UHGV virus genome: UHGV-0117503
DNA: 10,777 nt
From: a virus
Reading direction: 5' to 3' (one strand)
In this document: piece by piece, positions 1 to 10,777 of the stretch
How positions within the stretch are numbered: position 1 is the stretch's first letter
Layout: each line of letters begins with the position of its first letter
Position numbers and translations under genes: made by a program
Notes under the pieces: model-generated
What the model was told of the DNA's origin: nothing
What the model saw: the letters and a program-made list of their open reading frames with translations, nothing else
Database searches by the model: none

Positions 1-262
1 TTCGCTCCGCTGCAACTGCAGGAAACCTACGACAACAGCGGGCTGAACATCGGATTCCCGGACGCCGAACTGACGGGCGTTCTGATCTGCGTGGACGTCA
101 CCGAAGCGGTCGTCGACGAAGCGATCGGGCACAGGGCCAACCTGATCGTGTCGCATCACCCGCTGCTATTCCACCCGTTACGCCGGATCGTCGGGGCCGA
201 CGCTTCGCAACGGATCGCCGCGCGCTGCCTGATCGCCGGCATCTCGCTCTATGCCGCGCACA
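1..262 (+). CDS. Nif3-family (YbgI/YqfO-like) protein, internal fragment; open at the window start and lacking its own C-terminus
   Basis: Frame 1 is open from nt 1 and reads ...YDNSGLNIGFPDAELTGVLICVDVTEAVVDEAIGHRANLIVSHHPLLFHPLRRIV...ISLYAAHTN, matching the Nif3 signature from memory (WDNxGL, HHPLIF, LYxAHTNLD). My own count gives about 65% G+C over nt 1-240, unlike the rest of the window. The end coordinate is approximate. Confidence 0.5.
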
Positions 263-523
263 CCAATCAGGCTCTTGCAAACTTCGCAGGTTTCGTTGTG
301 GCTGTGAGCTTTAGCTTCTTCGCGAATGCAAAATTCACATTCAAAGCTTCGACTACAACGATGCGCTACATGTTATATGTAGGATTCATGGGAACACTGA
401 GTGCTACTGTTGGATGGGCTGCCGATAAATGTGCACTTCCTCACTCTTGTCACCTTCTCCGCCATCAGCCTGGTTTGCGGTTTCGTCTATTCAAAGTTCA
501 TTGTCTTTAGGGATGCGAAATGA
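263..523 (+). pseudogene. gtrA: gtrA-like bactoprenol-glucose flippase remnant: N-terminus replaced and body frameshifted
   Basis: From about nt 263 the same frame reads QALANFAGFVVAVSFSFFANAKFTFKASTTTMRYMLYVGFMGTLSATVGWAADKCALP, which matches GtrA as I recall it. The expected C-terminus [26 protein letters not shown] is in the adjacent frame (open 401-523), ending at TGA 521-523 in an ATGA overlap with the gtrB start. The frame switch lies at about nt 439-445. Confidence 0.55.
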
Positions 524-1431
524 AGATATCTCTTGTAGTTCCTGTCTTCAATGAAGAAGAAGCAATACCAATTTTTTATAAAACGGTACGTGAATTCGAA
601 GAGTTGAAGCCATATGAAGTGGAAATTGTTTTCATAAATGACGGAAGCAAAGACTCTACGGAGTCAATTATTAATGCTCTGGCTGTTTCAGATCCCCTAG
701 TTGTTCCGCTGTCATTTACACGCAACTTTGGTAAAGAACCAGCATTGTTTGCAGGATTAGACCATGCAACAGGTGATGCCGTTATTCCTATTGATGTTGA
801 CCTGCAAGACCCGATTGAGGTTATTCCTCATCTTATTGAAAAGTGGCAGGCAGGCGCTGATATGGTGCTTGCTAAACGTTCGGATCGTTCAACCGATGGA
901 AAATTAAAACGAAAAACAGCTGAGTGGTTCTACAAACTTCACAATAAAATAAGTAATCCAAAGATCGAGGACAATGTTGGCGACTTTAGACTAATGTCCA
1001 GACATGTTGTTGAGAATATTAAACTTCTACCAGAACGAAATCTATTCATGAAAGGAGTTCTAAGCTGGGTTGGTGGAGAAATAAGTATTGTTGAGTATGC
1101 CAGAGCGGAACGCATTGCGGGGACGACTAAATTTAATGGCTGGAAATTATGGAACTTAGCTCTTGAGGGTATAACTGGTTTTTCAACATTTCCTCTACGA
1201 ATGTGGACATATATAGGATTATTTGTTGCAACAATATCATTCATGTACGGAGCATGGATGATATTGGATAAAATTTTATTTGGAAACAACGTACCAGGTT
1301 ATCCCTCACTTCTTGTTTCTATTCTTTTTCTTGGTGGGATTCAATTGATTGGCATTGGAGTCCTAGGTGAATATATAGGAAGAATCTATATTGAAACCAA
1401 AAAAAGACCTAGATACCTTATAAAAAAATAG
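520..1431 (+). CDS. gtrB: GtrB, bactoprenol glucosyltransferase (GT2 family)
   Basis: The 303-aa ORF starts [29 protein letters not shown], contains DGSKD and a DVDLQD-type GT2 motif, and ends in two C-terminal transmembrane helices and ...IETKKRP. It is near-identical over its length to enterobacterial prophage GtrB/YfdH as I remember it. Confidence 0.93.
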
Positions 1432-1432
1432 G

Positions 1433-2893
1433 ATGCATATGAACTTTTTAATTAGAGAAAGCGAAAAGAAAGCATTTGCTTTATTATTTGCAACCGCATT
1501 GCTTTTTATATATCCATTAATGCATTATGGTATATATTTTCGAGACGATCTACACAGATCTGTAACTGGATACTATGGATGGAGCGGCCTTGGTAGACCA
1601 CTCGCAGATATAGTTATAAAAGTAGCATCAGCAAGCGGAGATAGACTATTAGATATTTTCCCGTATAACTTAATACTATCTTGCGCCATGCTATCACTAG
1701 CATGTATACATATAGCTAGATTATTACAACATCTAAACATAAAGAAGCCAACGTTTTGTGCCTCATTGTTTATCTTTAATCCATTTTTTCTACAAAATCT
1801 AGCTTATAGATTTGACTCCACAGGAATGTCTTTAGCACTTCTTCTTTGTGCGCTTTCATACACCTACCAAAATAACAATATTTATATATCATTGGTAATT
1901 AAAATTTCACTTGGTGTCGCAACACTTTCACTGTATCAACCATGTGCAAATCTATTCATTGGGTTGCTATCAATCGAGCTCTCTGCATTATTCATTACTA
2001 ACAACACAAACAACAAAAAATTATTTTTAACATTAATCAAAAAAGCTGGAGTATTTTTATCATTCTACTCTATTTACTTTCTAATCGTAGCAAGAATATG
2101 GGGTTCAGAAAACAATAGATCTGAAATCGTCAAGTTAAATACAGATGGATTAAATCATATTTATAATACATTCCAAAGACTCAATACCTTGCTTGAGTCA
2201 TTTTTTAATGGTCCAGTTATTTTTTATTTTATACCACCGGTTATTTTATTATTTATTTTTATTATCCTTACCGTTTACAAAAATAGAAACAACTCGTTGG
2301 CAACCAAGATGCTTTTATTATTGCTATCATTGAGCTCGGCATATATATCTCTTCTTGGGCCGACATTTATTCTTGTTGATGCGCCCGTATTTCCAAGAAC
2401 GCTGGTAAGCTTCTCAATCCTCTTTGTTTTATTTTCCATGTATATAATTTCACTTTGTGATAAGCTAAAATGCATTGCATTAATACCTGTAGTAACAGTA
2501 ATAGCATTTAGCTCTCAATTTGCCAACGCACTGAACACCCAAAGAGAACATGAGAACTTTGTTTTAAATATGGTTGCATATGATTTAATGAATATAAATG
2601 GAATACAAAAAATTAAGACAGTGGGCAAGATAAGATTCAGTAAAAGAGCTGAATTACTCACAAATGATAAGCCTCTAATAAGCCAATCTATAAGCAGGGC
2701 TACTGAATTTCTTGCAACTTATCAAATGGTTAACAAGGGCTTGAAAGGTGTAAGCGATGGTTATGGCATAGAAAAATCCAATAAGGAAGAGTTGGACTCA
2801 TTCAAAAGCAATGGTGTTAAACCATATGTTGATAACAATGAATACTCAATATATGAAAATAATGGCGTTGCAATTGTAGTTTTTAAGGGATAA
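1433..2893 (+). CDS. GtrC-family serotype-specific O-antigen glucosyltransferase (polytopic membrane protein); type not identifiable by eye
   Basis: The 486-aa ORF lies immediately after gtrB (gtrB stop 1429-1431, ATG 1433; an alternative ATG at 1439 has AGGA 5 nt upstream). It is very AT-rich, with many hydrophobic segments and a hydrophilic C-terminal domain, which is the usual third gene of a gtr cassette. Confidence 0.75.
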   Translation: MHMNFLIRESEKKAFALLFATALLFIYPLMHYGIYFRDDLHRSVTGYYGWSGLGRPLADIVIKVASASGDRLLDIFPYNLILSCAMLSLACIHIARLLQHLNIKKPTFCASLFIFNPFFLQNLAYRFDSTGMSLALLLCALSYTYQNNNIYISLVIKISLGVATLSLYQPCANLFIGLLSIELSALFITNNTNNKKLFLTLIKKAGVFLSFYSIYFLIVARIWGSENNRSEIVKLNTDGLNHIYNTFQRLNTLLESFFNGPVIFYFIPPVILLFIFIILTVYKNRNNSLATKMLLLLLSLSSAYISLLGPTFILVDAPVFPRTLVSFSILFVLFSMYIISLCDKLKCIALIPVVTVIAFSSQFANALNTQREHENFVLNMVAYDLMNINGIQKIKTVGKIRFSKRAELLTNDKPLISQSISRATEFLATYQMVNKGLKGVSDGYGIEKSNKEELDSFKSNGVKPYVDNNEYSIYENNGVAIVVFKG

Positions 2894-2920
2894 TACGCAA
2901 CTAAAATAGTTCTGCATTGC

Positions 2921-2960
2921 TCATTAAGACCAATCAATCACATCAGATTGGTCTTAATGA
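2921..2960. terminator. Perfect 15-bp inverted repeat (hairpin) between the convergent gtrC-type and tailspike genes
   Basis: tcattaagaccaatc (2921-2935) pairs with gattggtcttaatga (2946-2960) around a 10-nt loop, 28 nt after the gtrC stop and 21 nt before the tailspike stop. There is no clear U-tract on either side, so intrinsic-terminator function is uncertain. Confidence 0.4.
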
Positions 2961-2980
2961 AATTACGCCGCGACCAGTTA

Positions 2981-4957
2981 TCACCTCCATTTAAACCGAG
3001 GTGAATATTCCCCGTTATTGAATCTTCCTATACTTACCTGTATTGTCGCCGGAGAATCAGAAAGAACCTCGGTGCTATGCAATGATAGTATAAGTGATGA
3101 TGATTCTATATCTCTATCTGCTTCGACCACATAACCATAATCTCGTTCTGGCTCTGTAAAATAAGCTATTGGTTTTCCGTTTGCTGCAATGGTAAATCTT
3201 CCACCAACAAATTTACCCTTGAACATAACATGTATTTTTATCCGAGTAACTCCCTTCGGTAAAACACAACCAGCATTTAATGATGCTGTAGAGTTTATAT
3301 TGAAATCTTTCCTTATCACTGTGTATGGAATTGCATATAAAGCTTCAGCAAAGTTTGATTGAGACTGATACTCTGTCGCAGCAATAGAGCTCCCCCCCAT
3401 AATTCTAAATCCTCCAACACCGGAGAACACACTATTAAAAGCATCCACAGCTTTCGTAAAGTTACCAATACAAACAGGTGTTTCTGCATCATTAATGAAT
3501 TGTTCCCTTGAATACAATGTCACACTGTTTATATATGTACTTTTATAACCACCAATATCATCAGGGCTTAAAAATCCATACCCATTGGAACCATCAGATA
3601 CGCCATTAAATTCTGTATAATAGCTACAAAATTCGTTAGATGATCTTGGAGATGTCTCAATCCATCCAAATCCAAAATTTCTCTCTGACTGAATATTGCT
3701 ATAAGTACACCCACTACTCCGCGTTATAAGGCCTGCGCCACTATAGCGCGTCGCTGAGTCTGGTGATGGGTCAAAATCACCATTGCGACCATTTGTGTGT
3801 GTACGTATACGTAAAAAACTAACAGAATTTACAGCCAAATCATCAGTTTCTCCTTGAGTAGGATAACCAATAACAACTCCGCGCCCATAGTTATCATGTG
3901 CAACTATTGTTCCAAATGAACAGAACCAAGACTGATAAACTGATATGCCGACGACACGAGCATTTATGGCTGTAATATTGTCGCAATGTGACTCATTTGT
4001 AAAATATCTAAAATAAAATCCATTTGTCGCCTTATTATCACAATCAGAAATTATATTTGTAATTCTTACTGAGCTTACATCTTCAGTTGGTGTAACTCCA
4101 ATTGGAGAGCGAGAGCATCTAATAACAGCCTTTTTAATTGCAACATCCCCAATCCATTTAATGGTTGTAGCAAATCTATTACCTGCTCGCAGAGAATTTC
4201 CATATCCTCTCATATCCAAGCCATTTGGAGGCACAAACTCATCTGTAATTCCAATAACACCAGCTGGAAGGATTAAAGGTAGTTTATTATCAGATGCGAA
4301 TTTAGCAGCACTGGTTAACTCATTAATTGAATCTTTTTCTCCATTTAAATTAACCCCCCACCATTTTAATAGAACTTCTCCATTGATATTTCGTTTCCAC
4401 CGCCTCCCAATTGCGTCAATAAGTATTGTTCCTCCATTATCTTGAGATGTAGAATCATACTTATCAATTTCAAATATTCCATTTCCACCATCAAATATAT
4501 TTCGCACACCATATACATAGCATCTATGCATATTCCCGCTATAATTTCTAATATCTTCGTAATTTGCTCCACCTATATATCCCAAACCGAAGCTTTGAGA
4601 TAATTGAACTTTAAATTGATCAGGTTCATACTTCAGCACATTCGGAAAATAAAACTGCTGAGCACCGTATGCATCATAAACAGCCATAGAATGGCCTTGC
4701 ACAGTTACGAACTTGGCAATCTGTCCGTTATATACCGGGTAACCAGCAGCGTTAATGATGATTGGTTGCGAAACAGGAACGTGAGAGCCGTCTTCGTTCT
4801 CCATATAAACCTGAATCTGGTTTTCTGGATTTACGGGGTCCGTGTCAATTTTACCGATATAAATTTTGCCATTGGCTACCGCTTTAAAAGAACGAGCCAT
4901 AGTGAAGAGTTGCGAAGGCATGCTTACCACAACATTGGCATTTATTGAATCTGTCAT
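2981..4957 (-). CDS. Tailspike protein: P22/Sf6-like head-binding N-terminal domain with a divergent receptor-binding (probable beta-helix depolymerase) domain
   Basis: The N-terminus [51 protein letters not shown]...[27 protein letters not shown] matches the conserved P22/Sf6 tailspike N-terminal domain from memory. The start is set at the internal ATG (4957..4955) that gives MTD..., not the upstream start at 5002 in the ORF track. The remaining ~540 aa are rich in G/N/S/T/I/V. Confidence 0.88.
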
Positions 4958-4982
4958 TTTAATTTCTCTATATGTTAAGCAA

Positions 4983-5016
4983 GCAATATTCATTGCTAGC
5001 ATGTTTTTTGTATAAT
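4983..5016 (+). promoter_or_regulatory. Putative sigma70 promoter for the HNH gene, in the divergent tailspike/HNH intergenic region
   Basis: A consensus TATAAT sits at 5011-5016 directly preceded by TTG, with a small palindrome GCAAT-ATTC-ATTGC at 4983-4996 upstream. No convincing -35 element at 17-bp spacing. Confidence 0.3.
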
Positions 5017-5044
5017 GAGTGAACTTTATTTAAAGGTGGTTAAC

Positions 5045-5554
5045 ATGAACTGGAACGAAGTATTCGTATTAAAAGACGATGGACTCCTGTACTGGAGTGA
5101 CCAATATCTTTCAAGACCCAAAATGTTCAATATTTCTAAAGAAAAGCCTACAGGACATATATTCAAGGACAAGAACAGGAAAACATCTTATATAATTATC
5201 AGGTATCAAGATAAAATATACGCCGCCCATAGGATAATATGGGAAATGTTTTATGGTGAAATCCCTTCAGGAATGCAAATTGACCATAAAGATGGTAATG
5301 GGTTAAATAATTCAATAGACAACCTGCGTCTAGTTAGTCTCGGTGAAAACCTAAAAAACAAATCTAAATACACAAACAATACATCTGGGTGCGCAGGTGT
5401 TTCATGGCATAAGACCCATAAAAAGTGGGTGGCATATATTAGCGACGCAGGGAAGCGCATTAATCTCGGATACTTTAAGTGTCTCGATGATGCAATTGCT
5501 GTAAGGCGTGATGCTGAAAAGACCTATGGTTATCATGAGAATCATGGTAGGTGA
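5045..5554 (+). CDS. HNH endonuclease with a C-terminal AP2-like DNA-binding domain (homing-endonuclease-like)
   Basis: Motif IDHKDGNGLNNSIDNLRLVS is HNH-like, followed by GVSWHKTHKKWVAYIS...KRINLGYFKCLDDAIAVRRDAEKTYG, which is AP2-like. The start is set at ATG 5045, which has AAGGTGG 5 nt upstream; the ORF track begins at 5015. Confidence 0.8.
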   Translation: MNWNEVFVLKDDGLLYWSDQYLSRPKMFNISKEKPTGHIFKDKNRKTSYIIIRYQDKIYAAHRIIWEMFYGEIPSGMQIDHKDGNGLNNSIDNLRLVSLGENLKNKSKYTNNTSGCAGVSWHKTHKKWVAYISDAGKRINLGYFKCLDDAIAVRRDAEKTYGYHENHGR

Positions 5555-5685
5555 TATCTGACATTTCATTGCTCCAGACGAATGATATGATGCAACCATG
5601 ATGTGATTGCATACCGAAATGGTACTATTGAGTATTTATCCAGTAGGTTACGATGCCATTCCACCCAACTGGTGAGGCATCAAGG

Positions 5686-5946
5686 ATGTACAGCAAATAC
5701 GACGAGGCGCAGTTTCACTTGAGACTTCCGCATGAACTCCACGCGAAAATTAAACAGCGCGCGAAGATGAATAACAGGTCGCTGAACTCAGAGATAATTG
5801 CAGCGATTGAAGAATCATTGGCTAAACAAAGCTCTGCATCAGTTTACATTGACGATGCAGAGCGTATGGCAGAACAACAATCTGATATGGTTAAGAAAAT
5901 TGTCTTTGATACGCTCAAAGAGCTATATAAAAAAGACAGCAGCTAA
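5686..5946 (+). CDS. mnt: Mnt-like ribbon-helix-helix repressor (P22 immI-type)
   Basis: The C-terminal half DDAERMAEQQSDMVKKIVFDTLKELYKKDSS closely matches P22 Mnt (...NDAERLADEQSELVKKMVFDTLKDLYKK) as I recall it, and the N-terminal region FHLRLPHELHAKIKQRAKMNNRSLNSEI is RHH-like. The start is set at ATG 5686 (GAGG 8 nt upstream), not the track start at 5653. Confidence 0.8.
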   Translation: MYSKYDEAQFHLRLPHELHAKIKQRAKMNNRSLNSEIIAAIEESLAKQSSASVYIDDAERMAEQQSDMVKKIVFDTLKELYKKDSS

Positions 5947-5966
5947 CTATCAGTTACGGAGGATTT

Positions 5967-6044
5967 ATGCAAAGAGATATGCTGAATATTGCGTTCTACA
6001 TATTTGGTTTTTGCACGTTCCTGGTGTTTGCGAAGCTATTCTGA
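5967..6044 (+). CDS. Hypothetical 25-aa hydrophobic peptide (possible single-pass membrane protein)
   Basis: GGAGGA at 5958-5963 is followed by ATG at 5967. The ORF encodes MQRDMLNIAFYIFGFCTFLVFAKLF and stops at TGA 6042-6044, 21 nt after mnt on the same strand. It is absent from the ORF track because of its size; it is unproven. Confidence 0.25.
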   Translation: MQRDMLNIAFYIFGFCTFLVFAKLF

Positions 6045-7199
6045 CAACGCATCAGACTTGGCACCTTGAGTCAGGGCGTTAATGGCCTTTTGCGCCTGCT
6101 GCATGGCTTTCTCAAACGCTGTTGATCCGCGTGGGGTGTTTGCCATTCGGAGCATTGCATTTCTGAATGGCTCGCTCTCATAGGCGCGAGTAAGAAGTCC
6201 GTAGCTTACCGCTGCGCCAGTTGTCGCCGGGTTCATTGCCGTCCCATATCCGATAATGAACGGGATGGTTTGCTGCCCTGTTGGTGTTGTTACTGCTGCT
6301 TTTGCAGCCTGCTGCGTGGATTGCAGGTAGTTTTTCAATCCTTTCAGATAAGCGGCTTCATGACCTTTAAATGTGATGCCAGTCTGGTTTTGCAGGATAT
6401 TAAGCTGCCGAAGGAACTGGTCAGGGGATCCGCCAGATTTCTCCATCGCCTTTCCAATGATGCCATTGCGCATTTGCGCCCTGCCAACACGACCAACTGA
6501 GTTATACAGCGTCTTAATTTCAGATTTGTTCTTGCTGAATAGCATGTTGTTGACAACTTCCGGCGTCAGGTCGCCTTTCATGAGAACATTCTTCAGCCTG
6601 GTATTCTTTAGTTTCGCCGCTTCGTCAGCGTAGACGGCATTGGCCTGCTGATATTTACGAAGAGTATCATTGCCAAGATTCTGACCAATGGCACCATTGA
6701 TATCGTCGGTCATCGCCTTGTAAACTCGCTGAATGGCAGCATCGGAACGGTTTGGTAACACTGGTCGCTCACCCTTCACGTCCATTCTGAACTGGCTGCG
6801 CAGATCGCTTAATTGCTTCAAATCCAGATTGACCGGACCATCAGGACCAGCATTGCGAACAAGCTCATCACGATATGACTGAAGTTTTGAAATAGTCTCG
6901 TTATCAGCCACCTTACCAAGCTTCTGCAGATTAGATATCTCAGTATCAATCTGCTGAATTGCTCGCGCAGGCTGAATGTTTACTCCAGCCATAGCATTCT
7001 GAACCTGCTCCAGTCGATTACCGGCGGCACGCCGAATTCCTGATGTTTTCGCTTTAAGGCTGTCAATAACAACTGCCGGATCGTACTCGCCGAATTTATC
7101 AGCAAATCTCTGCACCAACTGACTTCTCGCTTCCTGTTGCGTTGCTCTCATTCCGCTTGTGCCAGCCAGGGGGATATTTTCTGCTGTGGTCTGCGCCAT
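6036..7199 (-). CDS. Virion ejection/internal protein, probably the C-terminal part of the lytic-transglycosylase protein encoded upstream (387-aa ORF)
   Basis: Long ORF in the late-gene orientation. Its frame is open upstream of the ATG at 7199 as far as a stop at 7334..7332 and reads protein-like there (GAIAPEAQQAIRFAEREGVPLHTTDLLQPTSRVGK). It overlaps the upstream ORF by 52 nt. Confidence 0.6.
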   Translation of the reverse strand: MAQTTAENIPLAGTSGMRATQQEARSQLVQRFADKFGEYDPAVVIDSLKAKTSGIRRAAGNRLEQVQNAMAGVNIQPARAIQQIDTEISNLQKLGKVADNETISKLQSYRDELVRNAGPDGPVNLDLKQLSDLRSQFRMDVKGERPVLPNRSDAAIQRVYKAMTDDINGAIGQNLGNDTLRKYQQANAVYADEAAKLKNTRLKNVLMKGDLTPEVVNNMLFSKNKSEIKTLYNSVGRVGRAQMRNGIIGKAMEKSGGSPDQFLRQLNILQNQTGITFKGHEAAYLKGLKNYLQSTQQAAKAAVTTPTGQQTIPFIIGYGTAMNPATTGAAVSYGLLTRAYESEPFRNAMLRMANTPRGSTAFEKAMQQAQKAINALTQGAKSDALSE

Positions 7200-8413
7200 T
7201 TTCCCGACGCGGGAAGTAGGCTGTAACAGGTCTGTGGTGTGCAGAGGAACTCCTTCACGCTCTGCAAATCTGATAGCCTGCTGCGCTTCTGGCGCAATAG
7301 CACCACGAACGCCACGATACGTCCGGCAGCGTTAATAGCACCGCCAGCCAACACACCAACGCCTAAATCGGTGGCGAGTGCTTCCGCATCATCTTTCGCA
7401 CTATTTGCAGCAAGTGATCCAACTGCGTTTTCAGCGAGAAGGCGAGTTGCCCCCTGAGCAATTCGACCAGCAAGTGTTGGTGCCTGTGTTGCCGCTCTCT
7501 CAACGCCAGCAGGAGTGAGGTAAGGCAACGCTTCAGCAAATACCCTTCCCTCTGTCGTTTGTGGAGTCAGCGCGCCTTGCTGAAGGCCAAAGTCCTGCTC
7601 TAATCCCTGCGTTGTTACTCGTGGCGCTGGTTGATATGTACCATCGCCAATGCCGAGTTTACCGCCAGCCCAAGCCGCCGCGCTTGTTACAGCATCAGTG
7701 AGTTCAGCAGGTATGTTCGCTACGTTGATTCCTGCCTGTAGTAAGCCGCGCCCGGTTTCAGCAAGTCCATTACCAAGGTCAGACATTATTCCGCCTTGTT
7801 GCTGAACAGGTTTCGGTGCGACAGAACTTACGGGTTGAGGTGGCTGCTGACTGGCTGCCTGCTGCTCAATCTGAGCAAATGGATTATTTGGGTCTGACTG
7901 CACACCTGATGCCGATACTTGTTCGGATGACTGTACTTCCAGTTGTGCAAACGGGTTGTTAGGGTCTTGCTGAGGATGTACCTTTGCAGAGGTGGCGCGC
8001 TGTTCGACTGTTGAGTCTGTCACCGGGTCACCCGCCCATTGAGCAAAGCGATCATCAACGTAACCGCGGCCTTCAGGTCCTGGCGTATATTCACCACGCT
8101 TTGCCTTCATAACGTTGCCGGGACCGTCGTGATAAGCCTGAAGAGCGTCACGCCAGTTACCAAACTGCTGGTACATCTTTGCCAGATAGCGCGCGCCAGC
8201 GTCAGCCTGATATTCGGGGTTTTGCATTTGCTCATCGGTATAACCCATATCACGCCATGTCCCAGGCATGACCTGAGTCAATCCTACAGCCCCGGCGGAG
8301 CTTACTGCGGCAGGGTTGTAAGAAGACTCCTTGGCACCCAGTGCAGTCATCAACCCTTCTGGCACACCGTAACGTGCGCCAGCCTGCTCTAACAAATCAC
8401 GGTAATTAGCCAT
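7148..8413 (-). CDS. Virion ejection/internal protein with an N-terminal lytic transglycosylase (SLT) domain; the last ~55 codons of this frame are probably out of frame
   Basis: N-terminal GAKESSYNPAAVSSAGAVGLTQVMPGTW...YLAKMY is a classic SLT catalytic-region signature. A Q/P-rich linker carries a duplicated DPNNPFAQ motif. The C-terminal stretch of this frame (RIVAFVVLLRQKRSRLSDLQSVKEFLCTPQTCYSLLPASGKWRRPQQ...) looks like non-coding translation. Confidence 0.75.
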   Translation of the reverse strand: MANYRDLLEQAGARYGVPEGLMTALGAKESSYNPAAVSSAGAVGLTQVMPGTWRDMGYTDEQMQNPEYQADAGARYLAKMYQQFGNWRDALQAYHDGPGNVMKAKRGEYTPGPEGRGYVDDRFAQWAGDPVTDSTVEQRATSAKVHPQQDPNNPFAQLEVQSSEQVSASGVQSDPNNPFAQIEQQAASQQPPQPVSSVAPKPVQQQGGIMSDLGNGLAETGRGLLQAGINVANIPAELTDAVTSAAAWAGGKLGIGDGTYQPAPRVTTQGLEQDFGLQQGALTPQTTEGRVFAEALPYLTPAGVERAATQAPTLAGRIAQGATRLLAENAVGSLAANSAKDDAEALATDLGVGVLAGGAINAAGRIVAFVVLLRQKRSRLSDLQSVKEFLCTPQTCYSLLPASGKWRRPQQKISPWLAQAE

Positions 8414-9211
8414 TTACTGCCCCAAAGATGGAAGATATCCGTAGCGATTAATGAAGTCGATTGACAGCTCGGGGTGCTGCTTCAGGTAATCTATAGAAGC
8501 CTGAGGCGCTTCCACTCGCTTGATACCGTTTTGCTGAACGTACTTACCAACCGCCTCATTACGCTTCTGGTTGAGCGTGTTCAGGATGACGCCAGCGTTG
8601 CGACGAAAGGACTCCTCGCTCTGCGAGTTCTGCAGCGAACCAACAGCCTGGTCGAGCTTTTTGCCCTCGGCATCAGAAAGTGCGCCCATGCCTCGCATGG
8701 CCTGAACCGCTGTCAGGTATGCTTGTGATTTAAAGGTATCAAGTCGTGCCTGAGTGTCTGCAGCCTGTGAGCCTGGAACGTTGGGGATTACTCCACGTAA
8801 GCCTGTAATGCTCTTAAGTGAAGGAGAACTAACGATATCGTTCAGAGTGAACATGCTGGTTGTGAGGGTGTTGATGCCGTCTTTGTAGCCATCATTTAGC
8901 GCTTGCTGCTTCTGCTGCAACTGCTGGTTGTTGGCTGCTATGCGGCTCTGTATTTCCTGGCGCTTCAGGTCGTTAGTTTCTGCTGATAGCATCCGGTCAA
9001 GGCGCTTATTTTCGTTGTTAATGCGGTTTGTTTCTGCGTCCAGATTAATGCGCTGCTGACCTAAATTCGCCTGGATATCTTGCCCGCGCATTGTGATTGC
9101 CTGATTCCGAGCGGCGGTTTGCGAATCCAGATCCTGACCGCGCATGGTAACCTGGCGACCCTGCATTTTATCCTGTAGGTCAAAGTATTTTTCGGGTCCG
9201 AGACTGTTCAT
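8414..9211 (-). CDS. Virion ejection/internal protein (265 aa) with a Q-rich coiled-coil-like region
   Basis: Its start ATG overlaps the stop of the upstream gene (ATGA at 9208-9211), and its stop TAA (8416..8414) directly abuts the ATG of the SLT protein. The content RIAANNQQLQQKQQALNDGYKDG is typical of phage internal proteins. It sits between the gene-7 and gene-16 positions of P22. Confidence 0.7.
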   Translation of the reverse strand: MNSLGPEKYFDLQDKMQGRQVTMRGQDLDSQTAARNQAITMRGQDIQANLGQQRINLDAETNRINNENKRLDRMLSAETNDLKRQEIQSRIAANNQQLQQKQQALNDGYKDGINTLTTSMFTLNDIVSSPSLKSITGLRGVIPNVPGSQAADTQARLDTFKSQAYLTAVQAMRGMGALSDAEGKKLDQAVGSLQNSQSEESFRRNAGVILNTLNQKRNEAVGKYVQQNGIKRVEAPQASIDYLKQHPELSIDFINRYGYLPSLGQ

Positions 9212-9732
9212 CCCAGGTGATCGAACTGCCGCGGGTTCTGTTGGTACATCTGAGCGACGTCCTGAGGATTAACGCCAACACGAGCTAACTCACCGGCGTT
9301 GTTTTGCAGCCATGATTGCATTGCTTCTGGAGACGATGACGCAAGGCGTGCGCCAGCCGCTAAGGTGCCGATAGAATTACGCTGATCTTCATCAATGAAT
9401 CCCATGCCTTTACGAACGGATTCAATCTGGTCTGGATATTGAGTAGCCAACTGACGCAAAGCACTGCGATCACCAGACGCATAAGCATTAGCGTACGCCT
9501 GCTGAAATTCTTTCTGCCGCTGAGCCTGCTTTTCCTGCTGAAACACCCCTGCAATACCTGAAAGGCCTTGCAAAGCAGTCAGCCCAACATTGTTAGCGCC
9601 TGAACGCTCAATATCATTGTTCTGCCTGATAAGCTGAAGCGTATTGCCGATGTCATTTACGCTCGGAGCGTTTGAGTTGACGCCGCCGATACCAGCCAAC
9701 AATCCGCCGTTTGTTCCTTGCCAAGTAGCCAT
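9208..9732 (-). CDS. Virion ejection/internal protein (174 aa)
   Basis: ATG at 9732..9730 has AAGGGG upstream. The product is G/A/Q/N-rich, and the gene is tightly coupled to its neighbours on both sides. Confidence 0.7.
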   Translation of the reverse strand: MATWQGTNGGLLAGIGGVNSNAPSVNDIGNTLQLIRQNNDIERSGANNVGLTALQGLSGIAGVFQQEKQAQRQKEFQQAYANAYASGDRSALRQLATQYPDQIESVRKGMGFIDEDQRNSIGTLAAGARLASSSPEAMQSWLQNNAGELARVGVNPQDVAQMYQQNPRQFDHLG

Positions 9733-9741
9733 GATTACCCC

Positions 9742-10434
9742 TTAAAACAACGAGCCAAGCAATCCGATACCAGCACCAATGCCAGCGCCCCAAGGCGTTG
9801 ATGTTCCCAAAAGGCTGGCAAGACCTGCACCGGCAATCGCACCAGACGTGCCACCGCTAATTGCTGTCTGAAGACTTGATGGTTTATTGGCATTAGCAGC
9901 GGAAAGAGCTGCGCTTTGCTGTGCAATGCTGCTCATGTTGTTGGCGTACGTCTGCCCGGCGTTTGCCTGACCTTGCAGCGCACCAAGCCCAACGTTTGCC
10001 AGATTGTTGTAATTGCTCATCTGATTTGATAACCAAGACTGACCGAGTGTCGGCGCGATCGTAGCCAGTTGATTGCTTGTGGCTGTCGAACCAAGTCCAC
10101 CCGTCGCCTCCGCAGCAGCAAGACTCTGGTAACGCGCCTGCCCTGCAAGGTCTTTATACTGCTGAGAGTTGTAATACTGATTAAGTGCCTGCCCCTGACC
10201 TTCTAAACTGGAAAGGTTCTGAAGCTGGTTAACATACTGCTCCGCAAGCGGCGTGAACGGAGCAAGGTTTTTCATGATCGTCTGCCACTGCTGATTTTGC
10301 AGGTCTGCGGCATACTTCTGAGCTTCTGCTGCATACTTTGCGCTTTTATCAGAGCTACCACCTTTCCCGCCTTTTTCAGGGCACCAAGGTTCCTCGCCGC
10401 GCAGTTTTCTGCCCAGCTTAAATGCATATAACAT
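9742..10434 (-). CDS. gp7-like ejection protein (P22 gene 7 family)
   Basis: The 230-aa ORF begins MLYAFKLGRKLRGEEP..., which matches the start of P22 gp7 (229 aa) as I remember it. It has GGGAGA upstream of its ATG and a G/A-rich hydrophobic C-terminus ...GAGIGAGIGLLGSLF. Confidence 0.75.
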   Translation of the reverse strand: MLYAFKLGRKLRGEEPWCPEKGGKGGSSDKSAKYAAEAQKYAADLQNQQWQTIMKNLAPFTPLAEQYVNQLQNLSSLEGQGQALNQYYNSQQYKDLAGQARYQSLAAAEATGGLGSTATSNQLATIAPTLGQSWLSNQMSNYNNLANVGLGALQGQANAGQTYANNMSSIAQQSAALSAANANKPSSLQTAISGGTSGAIAGAGLASLLGTSTPWGAGIGAGIGLLGSLF

Positions 10435-10436
10435 GG

Positions 10437-10777
10437 CTATCTCCCGTGATTCAGGAAGTCGATTAGTTCTTCGCGTGTGGCGCTATAAAAAGTCACGTCA
10501 TCCACGCCTTTAAAGTATTTCTTGATGGTTCCGACACGCTTAAGGCCAATCATTGCGCAGTACATCTGACCGTGGCGGAATTTGCGCGCAGCGAACGATG
10601 TGACGCACTGAACGGTGGTGTTAGTAAGAATGTATCGCCAGAACGCCAGCCCGATTTCCTTGCTGAATCCACGAACCTCTGGCAGGTACATGGCGTGGCA
10701 ATCAAAGGTCAAAGGCTGAATCTCCTGATAGTAAACAATGCCGCCGAACTGCCCGTGCACGTTCACCTCGAAGTAAC
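10437..10777 (-). CDS. Virion protein at the position of P22 gene 14, 5'-partial (runs off the window end)
   Basis: The frame is open to the last base of the window (...YFEVNVHGQFGG...). The first in-window start is a GTG, so the real start is probably outside. It stops at TAG 10439..10437, 2 nt before the gp7-like ATG. The gp14 assignment is by position only. Confidence 0.55.
   Translation of the reverse strand, partial: YFEVNVHGQFGGIVYYQEIQPLTFDCHAMYLPEVRGFSKEIGLAFWRYILTNTTVQCVTSFAARKFRHGQMYCAMIGLKRVGTIKKYFKGVDDVTFYSATREELIDFLNHGR

Follow-up and report, generated by a model that had tools for sequence, protein, structure and literature searches.

The gtrA gene of this contig, which is frameshifted and has a foreign 5′ end, is best explained as an artefact of a low-coverage gut-metagenome assembly and not as a property of any genome, a reading to which a probability of about 0.78–0.8 is assigned. 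The window, i.e., the whole stretch of 10,777 nt that was analysed, is itself an entire metagenome contig (ENA ERZ651849, NODE_4094_length_10777_cov_2.537773) with a k-mer coverage of approximately 2.5x. Of this contig, 10.5 kb (nt 248-10777) belongs to a P22-like (Lederbergvirus) prophage of E. coli, of which it forms the right end. The foreign N-terminus of GtrA is an inter-genome chimeric join, made on a 21-mer that both parent sequences share. The real prophage in the sample most likely carries an intact GtrA of 120 aa.

Gene Content of the Contig

The gtr cassette consists of three genes, encoding GtrA, a proposed flippase, GtrB, a bactoprenol glucosyltransferase, and GtrC, the serotype-specific transferase (PMC3688519). 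In complete E. coli genomes, the gene order is tRNA-Arg, intS, gtrA (yfdG), gtrB (yfdH), gtrC and tailspike gene. The order tRNA-Arg, intS, gtrA is likewise seen in relatives and in a second assembly discussed below, and the window has a Nif3 fragment at the upstream position instead. The features of the contig are listed in Table 1. GtrB, a family-2 glycosyltransferase, is encoded directly downstream of gtrA, with the gtrA stop codon and the gtrB start codon overlapping in ATGA. The third gene encodes a type-specific GtrC, i.e., a GtrII-type glucosyltransferase, the product of which has an exact match in 35 blocks of the searched collection. Further downstream lies an HNH endonuclease gene, which strains no107 and Z1323HEC0300 lack in prophages that are otherwise close. 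It is called as 102 or 169 aa by different pipelines, the DNA being identical.

Table 1. Coordinates of the features found in the 10,777-nt contig.
Feature	Position (nt)	Strand	Description
Nif3/DUF34-family gene fragment, foreign part	1..247	+	frame 1; Alistipes-like gut bacterium
Chimeric junction, 21 nt TCTATGCCGCGCACACCAATC	248..268	+	exact identity between Nif3 gene and E. coli gtrA native nt 80-100
gtrA body, native nt 80-272, codons 27-91	248..440	+	frame 1; 100% identical to intact gtrA of same prophage elsewhere
8-bp deletion junction	440..443	+	native TCCAATTG absent between 440 and 441
gtrA 3′ part, native codons 94-120 plus stop	441..523	+	frame 2; identical to native sequence
gtrB, bactoprenol glucosyltransferase, GT2	520..1431	+	303 aa, PF00535 Glycos_transf_2 full length
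gtrC-type serotype-specific glucosyltransferase	1439..2893	+	484 aa, PF14264 Glucos_trans_II E=1e-27
Tailspike gene	2981-4957	-	
HNH endonuclease gene	5015-5554	+	between tailspike and Arc/Mnt repressor genes
Arc/Mnt-type repressor gene		+	
Ejection-protein genes: SLT-gp16, gp20 homologue, gp7 homologue		-	
16-bp deletion junction in SLT-gp16 gene (6036-8413)	7318..7321	-	421-aa + 371-aa ORFs vs 797 aa
12-bp in-frame deletion junction, upstream Inj_translocase ORF (9208-9732)	9223..9226	-	174 aa vs 178 aa

The Frameshift in gtrA

The contig was aligned to the intact gtrA genes of E. coli ECCHD184, no107 and Z1323HEC0300 (approximately 99.4% identity). Metagenome and genome contigs that match the window save for one substitution and three short deletions served as further references. 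An earlier note, made from the letters of the sequence, had described a frameshifted gtrA next to an intact gtrB and an intact gtrC-type gene, and for the contig this description is borne out by the open reading frames, the alignment and the Pfam domains. The note had also placed the GtrA body and its C-terminus in adjacent frames with a switch near nt 439-445, and had suspected a deletion of about 8 bp. The alignment to intact gtrA contains one single gap, which is of exactly 8 bp. It is located between nt 440 and 441, where the coding sequence passes from frame 1 to frame 2, and the native sequence reads CTTCC-TCCAATTG-TCACTC where the window has CTTCC-TCACTC. The placement of the gap is ambiguous by 2 nt (TC at 441-442), i.e., it can be shifted up to 442/443. 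The missing bases correspond to nt 273-280 of native gtrA, affecting codons P91-V94; across nt 440/441, the deleted form reads GCACTTCCTCACTCTTG and the native form CTTCCTCCAATTGTCAC. The native peptide at this site is CALPPIVTLVTF, a variant of the GtrA peptide CALPPMITLVTF with which the note had made its comparison.

The two parts of the gene can be followed in two overlapping open reading frames. In the ORF at 91..510 (frame 1), the GtrA body extends as far as MGTLSATVGWAADKCALP (...WAADKCALP) and is followed by a non-GtrA tail, HSCHLLRHQPGLRFRLFKVHCL. The ORF at 401..523 (frame 2) encodes the GtrA C-terminus, and its stop codon TGA (521-523) overlaps the gtrB ATG (520-522). It had been considered that the single frame 91..510 might be the conserved GtrA reading frame, which would have removed the frameshift altogether. 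This was rejected, as the conserved C-terminus is found in the next frame and the tail beyond CALP is without GtrA similarity.

Besides the internal deletion, the N-terminus of GtrA had been said to be replaced, which is true of the sequence. The homology to gtrA begins only at nt 248, equivalent to native nt 80, and codons 1-26 of gtrA are therefore absent from the contig; a Nif3/DUF34 frame precedes the point at which the homology starts. The consequences for the protein are illustrated by the Pfam profile PF04138 (GtrA_DPMS_TM), of which the window ORF covers positions 20-74 of 117 and the restored native protein positions 1-117. Native GtrA is 120 aa long, and no GtrA of approximately 120 aa with a complete GtrA_DPMS_TM domain is found in the contig. 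The final portion of this domain is lost through the frameshift. As written, the contig thus encodes no functional GtrA.

A Chimeric Join Between Nif3 and gtrA

The region upstream of gtrA originates from a different genome. The GC content is 60-68% in nt 1-247 and 30-48% downstream, and residues 1-89 of the translated frame match the Pfam family DUF34_NIF3 (E=1.8e-28). Nt 1-247 were unmatched in 5,426 E. coli genomes, and every E. coli and phage BLAST match starts at nt 248. The nearest species representatives of the Nif3 fragment are Alistipes spp., with 75-78% amino acid identity. A pattern scan retrieved the Nif3 side on 17 metagenome contigs which, where their names describe the source, come from human gut. 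Four of these 17 contigs were aligned. A 230-kb gut contig is 100% identical to nt 1-268 of the window, and contigs of 153 and 272 kb differ from it at two positions. Past nt 268, the Nif3 contigs run on natively with TGGACAGCG. E. coli gtrA, from its side, equals the window from nt 248 onward and has its own upstream sequence in its native context. Since the Nif3 gene matches through nt 268 and gtrA from nt 248, the two parents share exactly one 21-mer, nt 248-268.

On both sides of the junction there is thus a different genome, each with a native continuation elsewhere, an exact overlap of 21 nt and a shift in GC content. The 21-mer TCTATGCCGCGCACACCAATC encodes Y-A-A-H-T-N in both genes and, because two unrelated proteins have the same hexapeptide YAAHTN at this point, the chimera reads as one ORF. 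The resulting Nif3-GtrA fusion of 169 aa is already on record as a called gene, on this contig only. The smallest default k of SPAdes is 21. At the same position, the second assembly (L088/L091) has the native 5′ end of gtrA with intS upstream.

The Same Prophage in Other Sources

At least six further sources contain this prophage and were used for comparison (ENA ERZ27255934; Logan SRR30265305, ERR1302117, ERR1302196 and DRR784774; NCBI GCA_052647395.1, ACARQB010000099.1). Relative to these, nt 248-10777 show 0-2 substitutions and deletions of 8, 16 and 12 bp. The only substitution that is private to the sample lies at nt 1003, where C replaces A (N162H in gtrB), and it is shared with one further assembly only (L096). 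All other sources contain the intact GtrA of 120 aa. The 16-bp deletion, at 7319/7320, removes AAGCAGCACCTAATCC on the + strand, with 1 nt of ambiguity, and is shared with the second assembly. The SLT-gp16 gene, which encodes 797 aa in the other sources, is split by it into ORFs of 421 and 371 aa. The 12-bp deletion, at 9224/9225, is in frame and flanked by a CGA repeat. Both the 174-aa product that results from it and the 421-aa product occur only in the window contig and in the second assembly (L088). The 10.5 kb contain no 1-bp indels, and on this ground indel noise of the general kind that long-read or Ion-type sequencing produces was rejected as an explanation.

The deleted gtrA allele was not encountered elsewhere. 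A search of 5,426 complete E. coli genomes did not recover the deletion junction, and all 476 matches in these genomes that cover at least 80% of the query (476/476) keep the 8 bp. Neither IMG/VR nor the searched metagenome-contig collection contains the junction. In addition, three candidate products, one of them with a restored N-terminus, were submitted to an exact protein look-up. The frameshifted GtrA product is absent from the approximately 15 billion proteins of this look-up, and the restored GtrA of 120 aa occurs on 428 other contigs. The lesion does not behave as a genuine pseudogene would, because it is not reproduced in any other sequence record searched.

Other irregularities of the prophage concern genes outside the cassette. 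The homologue of gp20 (DNA ejection) is one gene of 443 aa in phage IME10, and is present here as two ORFs on the - strand (8414-9211 and 9208-9732). The split involves an ATGA overlap and the shortening of a C4 run to C3 (window 9208-9215). Several independent sources (L100-L103, L105) call the same split, as 178 + 265 aa compared to 174 + 265 aa in the window, which makes it a real trait of the lineage. It was accordingly rejected as a third frameshift artefact; only the extra 12-bp deletion within it is private to the sample. The integrase is called as 247 aa, compared to 385-386 aa for intS (L100 14569-15544; ERZ27255934 k141_76569). An IS-type HTH_Tnp_1 gene follows the short integrase, and several assemblies break there (contig starts of L092-L094). 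Judging from these genes, the prophage lineage may be defective. In one further assembly (L105, Logan SRR33442439), the SLT-gp16 gene is split by a private 7-bp deletion, GGGGATC, at the equivalent of window 6424-6430. Assemblies of this prophage thus seem to acquire short private deletions repeatedly.

Other Assemblies of Apparently the Same Sample

Three other assemblies are of particular interest. They were probably built from the same reads as the window, to judge by a contig end at the same base, by the SNP that is private to the sample and by the deletions in common. The second assembly (ERZ28575161, FENG16-1_SAMEA4378249_METAG-scaffold_3858; L088/L091) ends at the last base of the window. 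Compared to the same references, it has 0 substitutions and the same 16- and 12-bp deletions. In gtrA, 76 native bases are replaced by 69 N, and on its right side this gap ends exactly at the base equivalent to nt 441. It additionally has a private 7-bp deletion, TTAGACT, in gtrB (window 986-992), which breaks its gtrB, and it carries the common A at nt 1003. This deletion ends 11 nt upstream of the window SNP at nt 1003, and the region of nt 986-1003 looks like another spot of thin coverage. The two remaining assemblies break off where the 16-bp deletion has its left edge. L096 (ERZ27229519), which is 100% identical to nt 510-7319 of the window and has the private C at nt 1003 as well, terminates at nt 7319, and L097 (ERZ917550) terminates at nt 7317.

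The breakpoints of the window hence coincide with gaps and ends in the other assemblies, namely with the N-gap edge at nt 441 and with the contig ends at nt 7317 and 7319. As these edges illustrate, the departures from the otherwise invariant prophage fall where alternative assemblies break, leave a gap or disagree. The earlier note had gone on from the frameshift to propose that the flippase is inactive in the organism and that GtrA would have to be supplied in trans. This part of its interpretation finds no support, in view of the chimeric join, of a deletion that was found in no other record searched and of its coincidence with the edge of the N gap. The alternative assemblies instead point towards an indel that is an error.

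How the Lesions May Have Arisen During Assembly

The lesions in gtrA can be accounted for in two steps. Firstly, as the alignments show, the assembly graph crossed from the Alistipes-like Nif3 gene to E. coli gtrA via the 21-mer that both share by chance, thereby replacing codons 1-26. Secondly, two islands of read coverage would have been joined at 440/441 on a TC overlap, and the 8 uncovered bp in between would have been dropped. Joins of the same type may have occurred at nt 7319 (16 bp, 1-nt overlap A) and at nt 9224 (12 bp, 3-nt overlap CGA).

Such gaps are expected at this coverage. Under the Lander-Waterman model, a k-mer coverage of 2.54 and reads of 90-150 nt give 1-5 uncovered gaps per 10.5 kb, with a mean size of 14-38 bp, and the three missing stretches (8, 12 and 16 bp) agree with this in both count and size. 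As a set of mutations, three short deletions against one SNP is not a natural spectrum. The probability that three out of four differences are multi-bp deletions is 4e-6 to 4e-3, on the assumption that such deletions make up 1-10% of natural mutations. The microhomologies of 1-3 nt at the junctions exceed what random abutment would give (p ~0.003). This fits real microhomology-mediated deletions as well as a joiner that seeks overlaps.

The software step that was responsible is probably a path-level join. The path writer of SPAdes overlaps neighbouring edges by k minus the estimated gap, and their identity is unchecked. The graph gap-closer of SPAdes, on the other hand, works on overlaps of 10 nt or more and tolerates up to 2 mismatches. 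Inspection by eye showed no self-similarity of this kind in the native sequence at offsets of 8 or 16 nt, nor any mismatches next to the junctions. The gap-closer is therefore unlikely to have been at work, which makes a path-level join the likelier cause. To go by the contig names alone, both the window and the second assembly would be of SPAdes type. As a counterpoint, if the two assemblies that share the 16- and 12-bp deletions used unrelated algorithms, these two deletions must be present in the reads.

Alternative Explanations

An unlikely, though not implausible, alternative is that the 8-bp deletion is a real mutation, i.e., that gtrA is a true pseudogene in a decaying P22-like prophage, in which case the Nif3 5′ end would still be a chimera. 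Real decay is not implausible because other genes already give the lineage a defective appearance, the integrase being truncated beside an IS gene and the gp20 homologue being split. In the contig, the frameshift is beyond doubt, its junction has a 2-nt microhomology as in deletions that arise by slippage or end-joining, and the 16- and 12-bp deletions are common to two assemblies, so that at least those might be in the reads. Moreover, interchangeability of some GtrA and GtrB proteins and natural degradation of gtr genes have been reported (PMC3688519), and some E. coli genomes have two gtrAB loci. However, a real mutation would have to be reconciled with 3-4 multi-bp deletions against 0-1 substitutions in 10.5 kb, and with the absence of the allele from all other genomes, contigs and proteins searched. 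The site of the deletion is, to the base, the edge of the N gap, and the site of the 16-bp deletion is that of the contig ends. A different deletion, private to the second assembly, lies in the gtrB of that assembly, and a coverage of 2.5x by itself predicts several uncovered gaps of such size.

A more specific form of this alternative, which is somewhat more doubtful still, takes the 8-bp deletion as real, possibly together with those of 16 and 12 bp. A gut E. coli clone would then have several short deletions, flanked by microhomology and unaccompanied by substitutions, in a prophage that is clonal across hosts in other respects. If so, the GtrA flippase would have been inactivated and gtrB and gtrC spared, and an unusual deletion-biased process, such as end-joining repair of repeated breaks, would be at work. 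Alternatively, within-host selection may have switched off O-antigen glucosylation. With a real deletion, the cassette would bring about less O-antigen glucosylation or none, barring complementation by another gtrA in the genome, and the allele would be an ordinary loss-of-function allele of a well-known cassette; the inactive flippase proposed earlier would then be a reasonable deduction.

It is quite improbable that a single read, or a small number of them, contained the deletion, be it from library preparation, from a sequencing artefact or from a rare subclonal variant, and was faithfully assembled where no other coverage existed. The very low coverage is in line with this, as is the second assembly, in which nt 373-440 are unassembled, suggesting the support of a single read. 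The distance of 11 nt between the SNP at nt 1003 and the private deletion of the other assembly likewise suggests error-prone read ends where coverage is thin. Nevertheless, multi-bp deletions are rare in short-read data, the 10.5 kb are free of 1-bp indels, and three such reads would be needed in one contig. The fact that contig ends and an N-gap edge fall exactly on the breakpoints would also be left unexplained.

Finally, there is hardly any chance that the Nif3-gtrA fusion is real, with Alistipes DNA recombined into the E. coli prophage via 21 bp of identity to give a hybrid ORF: the reading frame is kept across the join, which coincides with 21 bp of exact identity, and one ORF of 169 aa is called across it, but native gtrA and intS occupy this position in the second assembly, whose contig end is the same, the product is known from this contig only, both parents continue natively in many other contigs, 21 matches the smallest default k of SPAdes, and the foreign part amounts to only 247 nt, after which the contig ends.

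Relation to Known gtr Cassettes and Significance

The cassette resembles the gtrABC cassettes of other phages and prophages, such as those of Shigella phages SfII, SfV and SfX, Salmonella phage P22 and the E. coli CPS-53 genes yfdG-yfdH-yfdI, in having gtrA, gtrB and a type-specific gtrC in this order, the first two overlapping in ATGA. Relatives have the cassette in a P22-like prophage, where it is flanked by intS, at tRNA-Arg, and by the tailspike gene. At the nucleotide level, identity amounts to 83-85% with SfII, SfV and K-12 yfdGH, and to 99-100% with E. coli prophages. In contrast to the members of this family, gtrA in the contig is without codons 1-26 and without 8 internal bp, and both lesions are unique to this assembly.

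Natural decay of gtr genes is known from Salmonella, in which family II operons have internal deletions in gtrB and premature stops in gtrC, and it has been proposed that a second gtr operon provides complementation. Interchangeable GtrA and GtrB proteins have been reported in some cases as well (PMC3688519). The contig is similar to these degraded operons in that one gene of the trio is broken and the rest is intact. However, the Salmonella lesions are conserved across independent genomes, whereas the lesions described here are limited to a single low-coverage contig. A closer parallel is found in assembly errors, as chimeric contigs and erroneous insertions and deletions are recognized error classes of metagenome assembly (PMC9661791). 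The contig shares with short-read misassemblies a join of k-mer length between unrelated genomes, deletions at thin coverage and disagreement between assemblies at those very points. It is unusual among chimeric contigs only in that the join lies within coding sequence and preserves the same hexapeptide.

Taken at face value, the contig would supply gene catalogues with a pseudogene of gtrA beside intact gtrBC, and with a fusion of Nif3 and GtrA. It offers a clean example of how low-coverage metagenome contigs can contain in-frame inter-phylum chimeras and short frameshifting deletions. On the comparisons made here, the cassette is ordinary for the phage gtrABC family to which it belongs, the lesion in gtrA is most likely no real feature of it, and recognizing the artefact averts a false inference on serotype conversion.
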